Virus record (IMG/VR): IMGVR_UViG_2802429248_000006
Coordinates: 1 to 26,851 of that record
Length of the DNA stretch: 26,851 nucleotides
Reading direction: 5' to 3' (one strand)
Source: a virus
Taxonomy: Duplodnaviria > Heunggongvirae > Uroviricota > Caudoviricetes
A program made the position numbers and the translations under genes. Below, in pieces: positions 14,215 through 25,773 of the stretch. Each line of letters starts with the position of its first letter. Position 1 is the first letter of the stretch. The notes beneath the pieces are model-generated. The model made no database searches. It had not been told where the DNA came from and was given only the letters and a program-made list of their open reading frames with translations.

Positions 14215-15318
14215 TTAATCTTGCTCAGGCTCATAACGTGGTTCAATACTGCCAAAATTAACATATTTAATAACCGACGTTAACTCTATATCCTCAGCGT
14301 CCATATTATCATAATTCCTATCGAAATCATTAAATATGGTAAAGATCACACTGGTAGTATCATCAACTTCTGTAAACTCCGTTGTAGCAGCCAAGTAAAC
14401 ATTATCTTTATCTATAGAATCGTAATGATAAAAATTAAATTCACACTCAGCATTATATGTTACTGTGACTTTAATCTCAAAAGTCGCATAATCTTGACTA
14501 ACATCTATAACATTAATAGAAGGTTCAAACTCAACGTCTGATACATAACAATAGTTAGCCTCCGGCTCAAAACTAAGGTAGGAATCAGCCTCTGCCATAA
14601 AACTCACATCATCATAACGGCTAATAACTACACTTCTAATAGAGTCCAATAGGGTAATAGATTTTCCAGCCTCTATATCGAGCATTAAACGCTGAGCAAA
14701 CTCATATGGAGCTGTTCTAGGTTGAAAGTGCGTTAATGCTTCGCCTAAATCCTGAATGCAGGTTACATAATCTGAACCACTACAGTATTCAATCCATCCC
14801 TGGTCTCTTGAAATTGCTATTATTTTTTTATGAGATTTTTTAGCATAAGCCTCAATTGCAAATAGAACTGTTGCATCTGGAAACTCCTCCTTCCTTTTCT
14901 TTCTATCAGCGAAGGGCGGAGTTAAATTAAAATAAGCATCAAATACTTCATCAAGTGTTGTATAGTCACTACACTTAATTTCAACCGCACCACATTTTTT
15001 CAAATATTCTTCTATCCTTGAAGAGGCCAACGCATCAGAACTGACCATTTGTATAGAGTTTTCAAAAATAGATTCAGTCTCTTTGCTGGTTAGCAAAGAA
15101 TGTATCAGTGCATCTTTAAGAGATTTATCCAGTGCATCTTGTGATTCTTTAATTTTTTTTGATAGATGACTTTGCACTTCATTTTTCACGATGTCAGGCA
15201 TAAGAAAATCCACTTGGCTATGACAAAACTGCTTCATCCGTGCAAGCATACCTTCGTTAAAACGCCAGTGATAATTATCAATAGTTTGTGTATCTAAAAC
15301 TATAGCATCGTATGACAC
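14215..15318 (-). CDS. Hypothetical cargo protein, 367 aa; N-terminal PIN-like nuclease-type fold suspected, C-terminal acidic beta-rich domain of unknown function
   Basis: Long intact ORF with GTG start and an AAGGAG Shine-Dalgarno; visibly AT-rich against the GC-rich flanks; N-terminus AIVLDTQTI plus later acidic residues (E47, PDATVL, SRDQGW) resemble a PIN-like pattern. Confidence 0.6.
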   Translation of the reverse strand: MSYDAIVLDTQTIDNYHWRFNEGMLARMKQFCHSQVDFLMPDIVKNEVQSHLSKKIKESQDALDKSLKDALIHSLLTSKETESIFENSIQMVSSDALASSRIEEYLKKCGAVEIKCSDYTTLDEVFDAYFNLTPPFADRKKRKEEFPDATVLFAIEAYAKKSHKKIIAISRDQGWIEYCSGSDYVTCIQDLGEALTHFQPRTAPYEFAQRLMLDIEAGKSITLLDSIRSVVISRYDDVSFMAEADSYLSFEPEANYCYVSDVEFEPSINVIDVSQDYATFEIKVTVTYNAECEFNFYHYDSIDKDNVYLAATTEFTEVDDTTSVIFTIFNDFDRNYDNMDAEDIELTSVIKYVNFGSIEPRYEPEQD

Positions 15319-15495: not shown

Positions 15496-15523
15496 ACGCA
15501 AAAGCCCGCCAGTTCTGGCGGGC
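15496..15523 (-). terminator. Rho-independent terminator for the minus-strand SOS/early transcript
   Basis: GC-rich stem GCCCGCCAG/CTGGCGGGC followed on the minus strand by a short T-tract (TTTTGCG). Confidence 0.5.
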
Positions 15524-15658
15524 CTTAGCAAAAACGATCCTCAAACGATCATGCGATCTCATGCGGCATAGACATGCACTACAGAGCTAACGCCTCGCAA
15601 GGGCTGGTTGTTCAACCTTGCTGACGCCAGAAGCAAGTTCAGACGCCAGCAACGTTTC

Positions 15659-15891
15659 TTAATGCAGCCAGCTGTCGTCTTCCCACACCTTCTGCATAAT
15701 TTTCATCACTTGTTTTCTTTCTTCGTCCAGTTGCAGTCCGGTTAGTTCCACACCGTTAGAGCTACCTTTGCGAATGCGAATTACCGTTTTGGATACAGGG
15801 GGCGCAGATTGCGGTAAAGCTCGGATTCAAGGGCGTCCAGGGTAGACTGGCTAATCTTCTGCTCTTTATCGATCATTATTTCAATGCGCAT
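15659..15891 (-). pseudogene. dinI: DinI-like gene interrupted by a 1-nt frameshift in an A4 run
   Basis: N-terminal 29 aa MRIEIMIDKEQKISQSTLDALESELYRNL resemble DinI; reading stops after RPLYPKR, but the -1 frame continues ...VIRIRKGSSNGVELTGLQLDEERKQVMKIMQKVWEDDSWLH, matching the DinI C-terminus; shift point is the A-run at ~15787-15790. Confidence 0.65.
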
Positions 15892-15901
15892 AAAAGTCAC
15901 C

Positions 15902-16090
15902 TCAGCTGATGACATCCATTGAGCGGTTGTATTCGTGGGTTCTGATTTTTGCCATGAGTTCATCTGTTAGTTCAGAAACCCACTGCAGAGCCAGCCCCTT
16001 CTCTTCATCACTACACTCACTAGCCGCTACAAGCTTAAGAAAAAAATCAATGCGCTGGAGCTTCAAAGACTCCAAAAAATAGTCCTGCAT
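15902..16090 (-). CDS. Small SOS-regulated protein (62 aa), possible Tum-like antirepressor N-terminal module
   Basis: ORF 15902..16192 trimmed to the internal ATG preceded by AGGAGGAAAG; sits directly downstream of the LexA box and upstream of the DinI-like gene. Confidence 0.45.
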   Translation of the reverse strand: MQDYFLESLKLQRIDFFLKLVAASECSDEEKGLALQWVSELTDELMAKIRTHEYNRSMDVIS

Positions 16091-16132
16091 CTTTCCTCCT
16101 ATGACACCACAAGAAATACTGTATGTATAACC

Positions 16133-16151
16133 ACTGTTTATATTTACAGTA
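16133..16151 (-). promoter_or_regulatory. LexA box (SOS operator)
   Basis: aCTGTttatatttACAGta fits CTGT-N8-ACAG with an AT-rich spacer; located just upstream of the small ORF and overlapping an AT-rich promoter-like region. Confidence 0.7.
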
Positions 16152-16243
16152 TATAATAATCTTACTGATGTAAAACGTTTTTTTACGTTCATCAGCCTGA
16201 TATGCCTGGTATTATTAAGAGCACGAATTGTTAATCCGCGTAA

Positions 16244-18685
16244 TTAATACAGGTTCCGCCACTTATCATCTTCCCGCAAACGCTGGTTCCGATAGAAGAT
16301 ACGCAAGCCTGCTCCTGACGGAATACTGCCGCCGCGAAGGAGTAAATCGACCTCTTTCTCGCTACCATCAAATCCTCTGGACTTCAGCTCATAGACGAGC
16401 TGCTGTCGCTGATGATCTGTAATTCGCTGTTTGTAGTCTTTACGCCGTTTCGGTTTCACCAGGCGTAACCTTGCTGCCAGTTCCCGGCGCTCTTTTTTGC
16501 TCATACTGTGCAGATAATCGTGCAACTCCTTGTCATCCATGCGGGTAATATCCGTTCTGGTGTCCCCATCAGCTGATTTATCTTTCTCCTGTTGGTTCAA
16601 ATTTTCAGCAAGGGGACAGTTATTGCCACGAGTCCAAGGGGCGCAAGCGCCCTGGTCGGCTGCCGCCTCCTGAACGTCAACGGCCTTACGAACCATTTTC
16701 CACTTCACGGCATGAGTGCAGATCTTGCCCTCTGCAATGGGTGACCAGATGCCATAAATACGAATGCCGTGATCGCCATAGGCGGTCGGCTCTTCGTTAA
16801 TTTCATAAGCGGTTCTGATGAGGTGATATTTGCGGGGAACCAGTACGCCGCCCTGCTTCATGATGTAGGTGGCAAAACAACCAGCATCAGCAGCAGCCAG
16901 GATGGCATCAAGGCGCGGGTTATCCAGTACCGGCGCACCTGCTTTTTTGTCGCCCTGTTGCCTTGCCGCCTGACCAGCCAGCAATCGCAGTTCACGGTAA
17001 GCCTGACGCCCCGGAATGCCAAAGAAGCGGAATTGCTGAACACGATGCAGAGACGCCCAGGCATTAACGTATTCAGCGTTATCACGCAGGGATTTACCCG
17101 TTTCCTTGCTGATCTCGCCAGCCAGACCACGCCCGTCAATGTTCTTACTGATGTATTTCGCGATGTAGCTTGTTGGCGTACCTTTGCGCGGGTTTATCAG
17201 CTCAGACTTAAAGCGTGGTCCCGTGTTATTACCCAGCTCCTCGCGGTCTTCACGAATGGCAAACTTACGCAACAAAGCAGTAATGGCGCGGCGATCTTTT
17301 TTGCGCATAAAACACAACAGGTGCCAGTGAACTGTACCGTCATGATGCGGCTCAGCCACCCGCACGCCATACCAGCGCAATCCGGCTTTGTGCATCGCCT
17401 TACGAAATGCAGCAAACATGCCGACCAGATAATCACTGCTTTGTCTTACCGTCGCATTTGTCCAGGTCGGGTTGGGCCTGCCGTTATTTAGCGTGGAATG
17501 GAAACGTGACGGACAGGTGATGGTGTAGAAAACGGCGCAGTCACTGCGCATTTCCGCGATAAGCTCCAGACCTTTAACACAGGCCATCATCTCATTGCGG
17601 CGATGCGCCGGGTTGCTGCTGCTGGCGTTTACCACATCTTCCATATCCAGCGTGTCGCCGTTTTCGTTCACCAGTTCATGAGAACGGAAAAACTCCAGCG
17701 ACTTACGGCGCTGCTCACGTTTATGCATCACGGCTTCATAGCTGACATAGGGAGATGCTTTTTTGCTGACCAGGCAGACAGCACGCAACTGCTCTTCCCG
17801 CCATTCGCAGCGCATCTTCCATAATTTCCGATACCACCAGTCGGCACACAACATACGCGCCAGCGAACCCGGAATGAGTTCATAGGGCACGGGTTTGCGA
17901 CGCTTTCTTTTCCGACGAAGTTGCTCAAACGCAGGCGGGATAACATCCAGTCGCAGGGTTTCCGCTGCCACCTTTTCCCATGTCTTGCGGATTTCTTCTG
18001 GCTTAACATCATCGGTGGCGTACAAATCACCACAAGCGGCATCAAGGCACATGCTCATATGCGCAGCTACCAGGGTGGACAGGCGTTTCACCTGATCCTG
18101 ACTCATTTCAGGCAGGATCAGCAGGCCGTCCAGCCCTTCATGGCTCGCCATAAAGCGAAAAGAAGTGGATAGCTGACTGTCGCGTACATGCTCCAGCCGT
18201 TCCAGACATGGCTTAATCGTCTCACGCAAATAGCGGGAATAAGCCTTTGGCCTGCCCAGGCTGCTGAAGTATTCAATACGTTGCATCAGCGGCTTGCTGA
18301 TATGGGAAGGCTGGGCGTTAACGTCCGCCAGAATGACCATGTCCGGATTAAAACGCTGCTGCTCATGCGCCAGCTTTGCCCGGCTAATGAGCTTATCCTG
18401 CTCCATTTCGCGTTGGACAGGATCACGGGATTCATTAAAGAAATAACGCTCCCAGACCTGATCACTCAGTGCCTCGCGGCGCACTTGTTCCTGCTCGTTA
18501 TCGGCAGCGTACAGAGTGATCAGGTTTGAAAGCGCAGAAACCGGCGCAACTTCCGCCGGGTCCAGATAAGGGTTAATGGCTTTCTTAGGTAAATTCCACG
18601 AATAACCCCCGGCAGAATTCTCAATGCTACCGGAAGTTACACTGACAAATGGATCGGCAAGACGGCCTGTGCTGATCTCTGTCAC
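16244..18685 (-). CDS. A: Replication initiation protein A (rolling-circle HUH endonuclease)
   Basis: 813-aa ORF with P2 A-type motifs ([25 protein letters not shown]); GTG start overlaps the upstream stop (GTGA). Confidence 0.9.
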
Positions 18686-22973: not shown

Positions 22974-23912
22974 ATGTCAACTCAAAAAATCACATTTCGC
23001 CATATTGAAGATAGTCTGAAAGCTATGGTCATGCAGAATCGTGGAGGGCAAAAAGTCATTGAGAGGATACTCAAGGCCTATGGTTTCAAATCACGCCAAG
23101 CCTTCTGTAAGCATCTTGGTATTTCACAAAGCACAATGGCTAATAGATATGCACGCGATACCTTCCCTGCTGATTGGGTTGTTATATGTTCAATGGAAAC
23201 TGGCGCATCCCTAGAATGGCTGGCCTTTGGTTCTAACAATGCAGAAGAAAGTTTCCCCCCTTATGTGGAACAACATGATGAAACAGTCCCACATGAGGGG
23301 TTTAACAGCAACGCTCATCAATCATCCTTTAAGCGCCGCATTGAGAATCACATTGAGCTTACTAACGGAGGAAAAGCCGCGATAGAGAGGATTGTTAATG
23401 CTTACGGGTTTAAAACCCGCCAAGCCTTAGCCGACCACCTTGGTATTTCAAAAAGCACATTAGCCACACGATACATGCGAGATTCTTTCCCTGCGGATTG
23501 GGTGATTAAATGCGCATTAGAAACCAAAGCGGATCTCGCCTGGCTAGTTACAGGAATCGAAACACCAAATAGTTCACAAGAAGAAAACACTGTAATTTTA
23601 AATAAGTTCAATTTAGTCAATGGCGTGCTTGTCGAGTCAGGTTTTTTATCCATGGATCGGTGTCTACTTCCGAAGCAAGAAACTAGCAGCTTGATGTTTG
23701 TAAGCAATGGAGAAAAACATGTCATATGTGATAAAGAATTTCACCTAATTAGAGATGGAAAATGGTTAGTAGGAATTGACAATGAGTTATCTTTAAAAGA
23801 GTTAACTCGTTTACCTAAGAACAAAATTCTTGTTTCTGGTGGGAGTAAGGATTTTGAGTGTTCCATTGAGGATATTCAAATTATAGCCAGCATTATCTTA
23901 ACAATACAATAA
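22974..23912 (+). CDS. cI: CI-like immunity repressor with two tandem N-terminal HTH domains
   Basis: 312-aa ORF; residues ~27-95 and ~130-200 are clear paralogous copies (ERILKAYGFKSRQAF...FPADWVVICSMETGASLEWL vs ERIVNAYGFKTRQAL...FPADWVIKCALETKADLAWL), resembling the 186 CI N-terminal domain as I recall it. Confidence 0.7.
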   Translation: MSTQKITFRHIEDSLKAMVMQNRGGQKVIERILKAYGFKSRQAFCKHLGISQSTMANRYARDTFPADWVVICSMETGASLEWLAFGSNNAEESFPPYVEQHDETVPHEGFNSNAHQSSFKRRIENHIELTNGGKAAIERIVNAYGFKTRQALADHLGISKSTLATRYMRDSFPADWVIKCALETKADLAWLVTGIETPNSSQEENTVILNKFNLVNGVLVESGFLSMDRCLLPKQETSSLMFVSNGEKHVICDKEFHLIRDGKWLVGIDNELSLKELTRLPKNKILVSGGSKDFECSIEDIQIIASIILTIQ

Positions 23913-23955: not shown

Positions 23956-25725
23956 ATGAATCATCATCTTTCAAAGATTTCTATAAAAAACTTTAGATCT
24001 TGCAAAGATATTGATATCAATTTTTCTTCATTCACGCCTTTAATCGGTTACAACAATGCTGGTAAGTCAACGATTTTAAATGCTATTGAATGGCTTTTTA
24101 AGAAAAAACTTTTGTCCTCTGATGATTATACTAATCCAGATAACCCTATAGAAGTTATAGGTACAGTTAAGGGTATTACTGAAGATATTTTGTCAGCTTT
24201 AACAGAAGAAAACAGAACTAGAATTTCACCCTACATTATTGATGGGGTATTGATATTTAAGCGTCAACAGCCTGTTGGTGCTCAAAGTGCAAAAGACGTC
24301 AGATTATTAATTAAAAACCCAGAAAATAACGAATTCAGGACATCACCAACGGGTATTGAGAATGCGATAAAAGCTTTATTTCCAGACCCAATACGTATAG
24401 GTGCAATGGAAAATGCAGCGGATGATTCTTCAAAATCAAAAACAGGAACTACAATAGGTAAGTTGCTGGCAGAATTGAGTTGCAAAATAGAAGAGAAGCA
24501 CACTCAAAGGATACTAAGCCATTTAAATGCCGTTAATAGAAGAATGACTGCAACCGGTAATAAACGAATATCGGACCTCAATGATATTGATGATTCAATA
24601 AGTAGTAAAGTTGCTGATTTCTTCCCTGGGATAAGTTTAAAACTACACTTCGAACTCCCTGACTTCAAGGATATATTTAAATCAGGGACTGTAAAAGTAT
24701 ATGAAGATTCATTTCCCGGCATTGCTCGTGACTGTTCTTCTTATGGTCATGGCACACAGCGTTCGATTCAGATGGCTCTAATAAGACATTTAGCTGATAT
24801 AACCAACGGTGATGATATTAAAACAACTACTCTACTGTTAATAGATGAACCTGAGTTATATCTTCACCCATTTGCTATCGAACAAATTAGAGAATCTCTA
24901 AAAACACTATCTCATCATGGATATCAAATAATTTTCTCTACCCATTCATCTCAAATGATTACCTCTGACTTAGCAAAAGACACTGTGTTAATCAGAAAAA
25001 ACAGTCAGCGTGGCACTCATTGCAGATTAACATTAAAAGAAGCAGTCAATAAAGTAATCGAACAACGACCAGCACAAGCAACCCATTTATTTTCATTAAC
25101 ACAGTCTTCAAAAGTTTTGTTTGCTAACAATGTAATACTAACAGAAGGTAAAACAGAGACTACTCTGCTCCCATTTATTTTTAACAAAGTTAAAAATAAA
25201 ACATTAGGTCAGATGCAAATAGCACTAATTGAAACAGGGTCCGTTGAAAGTATATCTAAAACGATGCAAATTCTAAATTCAATGGATATACCTACAAAAG
25301 CAATTGTTGATTTAGATTTTGCGTTCCGCGGTGCAATAAGGAACAACTTCTTAGAACATAATGACGAGGATATTTTACGACTAAAAGAAATCTTGAGAAG
25401 TATGCATGCTAATGGAGAATGCACTCTCGATGGATCCGGTTTGCCTACAAAGGGTAGTAACACTACCGCAGCTGAAGCATTTGCTATTATGTCTCAAAAG
25501 CCCGGCGCCAGAGAATTTTTGTCATCATTAGCCGCAAAACTGAGAAATGCAAATATTTGGATTTGGCTAAATGGTTCGATAGAAAACCATTTGGGTCTTA
25601 CAGAAAAAAATGAATCAGTATGGGCTGATTTCAAAACAAAAGCAGATACACAACCTCTTTCAGATATCTGTGCAGATTTCGAAAGTATTGAGGCTTTAGT
25701 CGACTGGATTACCCCTGACGTATGA
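23956..25725 (+). CDS. old: OLD-family ABC-ATPase / TOPRIM nuclease (P2 Old-like, class 1)
   Basis: 589-aa ORF with Walker A (GYNNAGKST), Walker B (LLLIDEPELYLHP), TOPRIM-type glutamate (VILTEGKTE) and DxD (VDLDFA); GGAGGAG Shine-Dalgarno; AT-rich. Confidence 0.85.
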   Translation: MNHHLSKISIKNFRSCKDIDINFSSFTPLIGYNNAGKSTILNAIEWLFKKKLLSSDDYTNPDNPIEVIGTVKGITEDILSALTEENRTRISPYIIDGVLIFKRQQPVGAQSAKDVRLLIKNPENNEFRTSPTGIENAIKALFPDPIRIGAMENAADDSSKSKTGTTIGKLLAELSCKIEEKHTQRILSHLNAVNRRMTATGNKRISDLNDIDDSISSKVADFFPGISLKLHFELPDFKDIFKSGTVKVYEDSFPGIARDCSSYGHGTQRSIQMALIRHLADITNGDDIKTTTLLLIDEPELYLHPFAIEQIRESLKTLSHHGYQIIFSTHSSQMITSDLAKDTVLIRKNSQRGTHCRLTLKEAVNKVIEQRPAQATHLFSLTQSSKVLFANNVILTEGKTETTLLPFIFNKVKNKTLGQMQIALIETGSVESISKTMQILNSMDIPTKAIVDLDFAFRGAIRNNFLEHNDEDILRLKEILRSMHANGECTLDGSGLPTKGSNTTAAEAFAIMSQKPGAREFLSSLAAKLRNANIWIWLNGSIENHLGLTEKNESVWADFKTKADTQPLSDICADFESIEALVDWITPDV

Positions 25726-25773
25726 TTTAATATTTACATACATTGACCACTGGTCAAACATACAGTTAAATTT

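Follow-up and report, generated by a model that had tools for sequence, protein, structure and literature searches.

Layout of the module downstream of gene A

The window, by which we mean the whole 26,851-nt stretch of viral DNA analysed here, carries on its minus strand a replication gene A (16244-18685; a homologue of P2 gpA and 186 A in the list of open reading frames, annotated as a replication endonuclease in relatives), the end of which forms the upstream border of the module described below. The module runs on the minus strand throughout: gene A is followed by an AT-rich spacer of ~150 nt, by an ORF for a 62-aa protein (16090..15902, with the ATG at 16090 and the TGA at 15902) and by a DinI-like gene (15659-15891), whose ATG at 15891 lies 10 nt past the stop of the 62-aa ORF. 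Within the spacer, a perfect CTGT-N8-ACAG motif occupies positions 16134-16149, 61 nt 5' of the 62-aa ORF, and a Shine-Dalgarno sequence, AGGAGG (16095-16100), precedes the ATG by 4 nt, the AGGAGG being kept in the relatives. The original prediction had listed a LexA box in an AT-rich stretch, a 62-aa ORF with a strong Shine-Dalgarno sequence and a DinI-like gene 10 nt further on, and every one of these elements is found where it placed them. On the grounds of homology, selection and a structural model, all presented below, we refer to the 62-aa ORF as a tumA-type gene for a proposed antirepressor, and to the DinI-like gene as tumB-type.

A strict scan called no sigma-70 promoter, and the position that we propose for the tum promoter is based on how its elements line up with those annotated for promoter p95 of phage 186. 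The candidate -35 hexamer, TTTACA (16169-16174, minus strand), was read from the sequence; TTTACA or TTCACA is found at the equivalent place in most relatives as well as in the annotated 186 p95. The candidate -10 hexamer, TACTGT (16146-16151, minus strand), would be separated from it by a 17-nt spacer and would lie within SOS box 1, as the -10 does in 186 p95; an alternative -10 hexamer would be TATACT (16148-16153), with a 15-nt spacer. Between gene A and this putative promoter, and overlapping the -35 hexamer, RNA folding detects an imperfect hairpin (CUGAUGAACGU...ACGUUUUACAUCAG, 16164-16197, minus strand, z = -3.0), which is also present in 813R9 and Fels-2. It may act as a weak terminator or insulator against read-through from gene A; in the Gifsy prophages, terminator-like palindromes have been described in front of the LexA boxes (Lemire 2011).

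The position of the promoter bears on the choice of the start codon. The reading frame of the small gene is open in the window up to an ATG at 16192, which would give a protein of 96 aa with the LexA box inside its coding sequence. Certain annotation pipelines choose this start, and some database entries, as well as one phage record, are indeed annotated with lengths of 84-101 aa. We regard this longer ORF as the true gene with next to no confidence: its in-frame extension is interrupted by stop codons in Fels-2, SopEPhi, ST437-OXA245phi4.1, SEN8 and others, its start would precede the conserved promoter and operator, and the strong ribosome-binding site is located in front of the ATG at 16090.

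At the other end of the module, a candidate intrinsic terminator (15500-15526, minus strand) consists of the GC-rich stem GGCCCGCCAG/CUGGCGGGC followed by UUUU (RNA fold, z = -3.7 for the region); it is preceded by a long imperfect hairpin at 15618-15652, and it probably terminates the operon. A further hairpin, GUCAUC/GGUGAC (15896-15913, minus strand), spans the stop codon of tumA and the ribosome-binding site of tumB, and could couple translation of tumB to that of tumA; the tumA-tumB intergenic sequence is different in SopEPhi-type relatives. Rfam and tRNA scans of the window came back empty. Directly after the terminator of the tum operon we observed a gene for a 367-aa protein with a PIN_12 domain and no match among the PHROG profiles (14215-15318, minus strand). 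The occupant of this cargo slot varies among the relatives, being a Hypoth_Ymh protein in 813R9, STM2726 in Fels-2 and orf97 in 186.

The SOS operator

The core CTGTTTATATTTACAG (16134-16149) is the only perfect CTGT-N8-ACAG of the window. It belongs to a 20-nt SOS (LexA) box, TACTGTAAATATAAACAGTG on the minus strand (16132-16151; box 1), which agrees with the SOS consensus at 17 of 20 positions and is the best match to it in the window. The second-best match, CAGTGGTTATACATACAGTA on the minus strand (16117-16136; box 2), overlaps box 1 with an offset of 15 bp, base 16134 being common to the two 16-nt cores, and boxes 1 and 2 together make up a 37-bp palindrome (operator 16117-16151). By a weight matrix that is based on 15 E. 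coli boxes and serves for ranking only, box 1 has the top score of the window and box 2 scores within the range of real SOS sites. The original prediction of a near-consensus LexA box is thus borne out with a perfect core, to which the overlapping second box, missed at that time, has now to be added.

Taken by itself, a single perfect CTGT-N8-ACAG in 26.9 kb is not unusual (0.36 are expected window-wide, and 31 of 100 shuffled sequences contained at least one, i.e. the occurrence is not significant alone), which would be compatible with both the small ORF and the motif resembling a LexA box having arisen by chance. This reading, to which we assign a negligible probability, is refuted by the comparative data. 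The location of the motif is informative, as by scaling we estimate ~0.002 perfect boxes for the ~150 nt that separate gene A from the ORF. All 11 relatives examined, with 186, PSP3 and very divergent ones among them, have an SOS box at the equivalent position, and it is retained there while its flanks have diverged. Moreover, the 62-aa ORF is under purifying selection (see below), and the module is present in 1125 of 5426 complete E. coli genomes, that is in about a fifth of them, with the small gene labelled "hypothetical protein".

The second box is confined to the Fels-2-type lineage; the operators of 186, PSP3, and the ESSI-2-type and Yersinia relatives have a single box. A 45-nt query covering the operator matched about a thousand plasmids. 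Two overlapping 20-nt boxes with the same 15-bp offset are known from colicin E1 cea and from pesticin pst (pPCP1), and the window operator can be aligned base for base with the cea and pst operators at 84-86% identity over 43 nt; the second boxes of Fels-2 and ColE1 have the same sequence. The likeness ends at the edges of the operator, and the cea and pst boxes drive bacteriocin genes on small plasmids. Since the shared sequence is largely forced by the geometry of the overlap, common descent of the phage and colicin operators and convergence cannot be told apart by sequence comparison. The colicin double boxes are reported to bind two LexA dimers and to keep a lethal function tightly off, with a delayed induction that prevents its untimely expression (PMC2994835). 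By analogy, we infer that the window operator would likewise be bound by two LexA dimers.

Elsewhere in the window, the third-best score was obtained by a further SOS-like site, CACTGGTCAAACATACAGTT (25748-25767), which lies between a gene for an OLD-like protein and int. It is followed by a terminator-like hairpin, GCCCTC...GAGGGC TTTTTT, located directly before the ATG of int.

Relationship of the two gene products to Tum

The 62-aa protein is identical to URC10483.1, which recurs as a "hypothetical protein" in many P2-like phages of Klebsiella and Escherichia, and shares 98.4% identity with STM2728 of Fels-2, a prophage of Salmonella Typhimurium. Comparison with diverged relatives (pS ~0.5-0.6) yields pN/pS values of 0.12-0.18; the conservation of the ORF in related prophages, on which the original prediction had staked its case, is therefore accompanied by purifying selection. 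AlphaFold models the protein as a hairpin of two helices (residues 2-23 and 28-61) with a pLDDT of 90. A Foldseek comparison of this two-helix model with the PDB returned generic helical hairpins only (E > 1) and was uninformative on function, and searches of Pfam, NCBIfam and the PDB sequences gave no match to the 62-aa protein.

The comparison with the N-terminal region of 186 Tum, proposed together with the original prediction, gave no alignment in pairwise BLASTP, and the homology is accordingly established through profiles. The 62-aa protein matches the PHROG profiles phrog_698, 8554 and 1993, and residues 1-61 of Tum match the same three (phrog_1993, 8554 and 698), in register, with positions 7-44 aligned to 7-44. 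TumA of PSP3 is itself a member of phrog_1993. A 60-aa "tum protein" of Yersinia provides a further link, as it matches phrog_698, 8554 and 1993 together with the N-terminal portion of phrog_189, the family of fused Tum proteins. Direct comparisons point the same way at lower strength: hhalign of the Fels-2-type profile against Tum aligns residues 3-42 with 3-42 (E = 8e-5, at a probability of just 61%), and hhalign against PSP3 TumA is weak (E = 0.043). A profile-level homology of the 62-aa protein to the N-terminal part of 186 Tum is thus supported by this chain of profile matches together with the gene order. In a phmmer search of the full library we found 66 representative clusters, nearly all of them consisting of stand-alone proteins of 50-100 aa, which makes the unfused form the rule within the TumA subfamily.

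The correspondence of the second gene to Tum is more direct. The intact, 77-aa form of the DinI-like protein found in the relatives matches Pfam DinI (PF06183) with 6.6e-23 over residues 14-76, and is 41% identical to residues 71-145 of Tum, both sequences being recognized by the Pfam DinI model; the DinI-like C-terminal part of 186 Tum, to which the original prediction had referred, is thereby corroborated. The same prediction was right about the presence and the homology of the DinI-like gene downstream, and overlooked that the gene is disrupted in the window. According to the list of ORFs and the alignment with 813R9, Fels-2 and SEN8, the tumB-type gene extends from 15891 to 15659, and has suffered a 1-nt deletion that leaves CC at 15791-15792 in place of the CCC of the relatives. 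The resulting frameshift leads to a stop codon at 15781-15783 and a product of 36 aa, with the remainder continuing in another frame to 15659. A DinI match over the full length, including the C-terminal acidic helix, is consequently absent from the window product, which lacks the C-terminal half. The gene is intact in all phage relatives and in the nearest E. coli genomes (99.9% identical).

The two ORFs of the window thus represent the two halves of 186 Tum, and in this respect the original suggestion of a split Tum-like SOS module holds, though any implication of novelty is unsupported: the split arrangement of tum, its control by LexA and the role of the upstream gene as antirepressor are already known. 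In Fels-2 and PSP3, tum is split in two by a stop codon (Lemire 2011, citing Bunny 2002), and the upstream gene of PSP3 was reported to be the antirepressor; this result for PSP3 is given by Lemire 2011 second-hand, as a personal communication. The GenBank entry of PSP3 describes tumA as "similar to 5' end 186 tum; UV induction of prophage" and tumB as "similar to dinI and 3' end of 186 tum". In the GenBank entry of 186, the annotation of p95 includes a LexA site, Tum in its full length carries the note "inhibits CI DNA binding", and the shorter DinI-like products, C-terminal and in the same frame, are said to "modulate SOS induction". Tum of 186 acts on CI, blocking its binding to DNA (PMC7708051; 186 GenBank entry). 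For Salmonella that carries Fels-2, the operon STM2726-2727-2728 was called differentially expressed, STM2727 being induced 5.5- to 14.8-fold by the mutagen MX (PMC2225428).

The order gene A, SOS-box promoter, small gene and DinI-like gene is common to the window, 186, PSP3 and Fels-2, and the module also lies directly after gpA in 813R9, SopEPhi and others. The closest counterpart is that of Fels-2 (STM2728 and STM2726.1, the latter being STM2727 in LT2 numbering), an essentially identical module in the same place after gene A, with an identical box 1 and ribosome-binding site, the 10-nt gap and the DinI-like gene. It differs in that the DinI-like gene is unshifted and in the other cargo that follows the operon, where the window has the PIN_12 protein; in addition, the CI of the Fels-2 relative RE2010 is only ~44% identical to that of the window. 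PSP3 has the same split architecture, with a tumA of 60 aa, a DinI-like tumB and a LexA box 40 nt upstream, and its CI has, like that of the window, a duplicated N-terminal domain, whereas its TumA belongs to another subfamily (phrog_1993; ~14% identity to that of the window) and its SOS box is single. In 186, the LexA-repressed promoter also follows gene A, with the -10 within the SOS box, and the target is a 186-type CI; unlike in the window, the two halves are fused in one Tum of 146 aa, internal starts give rise to the DinI-like products, the SOS box is single, and orf97 comes next. A more distant analogy is offered by the dinI-gfoA/gftA-irsA genes of Gifsy-1, -2 and -3 and by AntC of N15, small LexA-controlled antirepressors that act against a non-cleavable repressor (Lemire 2011). 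The Gifsy antirepressors accompany a dinI homologue, as here, in the reversed order with dinI first; the Gifsy phages and N15 differ from the window in being lambdoid and in using another repressor family (Lemire 2011).

The loss of an intact tumB, which is retained in relatives as close as the 99.9% identical E. coli sequences, might be taken as a sign that the whole module is a decaying remnant in this prophage, in which SOS induction is no longer selected. We consider such decay very unlikely. The gene for TumA, both SOS boxes, the ribosome-binding site and CI are all intact and match those of functional phages, and a difference of a single base in a homopolymer could be a sequencing error; alternatively, tumB may be a real pseudogene. 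Furthermore, ESSI-2-type and Yersinia relatives have tumA without any DinI-like gene, which fits a dispensable tumB.

The CI repressor and the predicted course of induction

The presumed target of TumA is encoded on the plus strand of the window (22974-23912). Its product, a 186-type CI repressor of 312 aa, was identified by Pfam matches to PF07022 (two stretches) and PF16452, by PHROG repressor families and by alignment with other CI proteins; an integrase, an Apl/Cox-like gene and a CII-like gene are also present in the window. The protein has tandem CI-type helix-turn-helix domains (at about residues 21-86 and 132-194) in front of the C-terminal domain. The duplication is shared with the Klebsiella phages 4LV2017 and ST11-OXA245phi3.1 and with PSP3; a single copy of the helix-turn-helix domain is found in 186, Cartapus, RE2010 and KP12. 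A Pfam search of the window CI gave no match to a LexA-like peptidase domain (peptidase S24). A CI of this kind cannot undergo RecA-stimulated self-cleavage, so that an antirepressor is needed for induction by the SOS response.

This composition of CI is relevant to the question whether TumA is an antirepressor at all. The small gene could be SOS-induced and yet have a host process as its target, be it RecA, LexA or something else, acting with or in the manner of its DinI-like partner, while the prophage would owe its induction to some other factor; such a role would agree with the fact that no curated family or solved structure assigns a function to the 62-aa protein, and with the occurrence of one TumA sequence alongside divergent CI proteins (see below). 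We find it improbable, if somewhat less so than decay of the module, since the 62-aa protein shows in-register profile homology to the very part of Tum that is needed for inhibition of CI, tumA of PSP3 is annotated for UV induction, a CI devoid of a self-cleavage domain requires an antirepressor, and the split tum of PSP3 and Fels-2 has been discussed in this sense by Lemire 2011.

We are confident that the window harbors, in its split tumA/tumB version, the operon through which the SOS response induces a 186/Fels-2-like (Peduoviridae) prophage, and that it works in the following way. In the undamaged cell, LexA of the host would occupy the double operator (16117-16151), which covers the -10 region, and would keep the operon off. 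Upon DNA damage, RecA-stimulated self-cleavage of LexA would free the promoter. The two-helix protein TumA would then be made, bind to the 186-type CI and block its binding to the operators, and inactivation of CI would derepress the lytic promoter and induce the prophage. TumB is predicted to be a modulator rather than the trigger, so that with the frameshift of the window TumA alone would be made intact. For the window and its relatives, the present data establish the sequence elements and how well they are conserved, the homologies, and the class to which CI belongs; control by LexA and antirepressor activity are taken over from the literature on close relatives, and we infer likewise that CI would be the target of TumA in this lineage.

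The pairing of TumA with CI was examined across phages. TumA proteins that are 98-100% identical occur together with CI proteins that are only 44-59% identical overall to that of the window (loci L012-L023). In these CI proteins, the helix-turn-helix domain beside the C-terminal domain is 68-81% identical, as opposed to ~30% for the C-terminal domain itself. This suggests, at the level of sequence, that TumA contacts the conserved helix-turn-helix domain of CI or, alternatively, that CI is not its sole target. Among 13 phages, TumA and the helix-turn-helix domain of CI vary together in identity (Mantel r = 0.90, p = 1e-4), compared with r = 0.23 for the C-terminal domain of CI. In a control with 7 phages, the correlation of TumA with the C-terminus of the neighboring gpA (r = 0.75, against 0.78) was nearly as high, hence the covariation of TumA and CI may reflect plain relatedness. 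A search of the literature for the domain of CI that is bound by Tum returned nothing relevant.

From these observations we derive a speculative proposal, which could well prove wrong: one TumA allele would act in trans on many 186-type CI proteins that share the helix-turn-helix domain and differ in the oligomerization domain and in the copy number of the helix-turn-helix, so that P2-like prophages residing in the same cell of E. coli, Klebsiella or Salmonella would be induced together, with the damage threshold of the Fels-2 lineage set by the colicin-type double operator. Two modest leads emerge, the double SOS box of the colicin type and the variety of CI proteins with which a single TumA is paired, and little is added to the biology of the system by the present analysis. 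Its value lies in annotation: the widespread 62-aa gene is covered by neither Pfam nor NCBIfam and is called "hypothetical" almost everywhere, and yet the response of these prophages to antibiotics that damage DNA probably depends on it.

Finally, we note that the region between cI and int in the window accommodates another gene (23956-25725, plus strand). Its 589-aa product is an OLD-like protein with an AAA_15/AAA_21 ATPase and an OLD-like TOPRIM domain, and probably represents defence cargo. The exact junction of the OLD-like gene with int was found in just 14 complete E. coli genomes.
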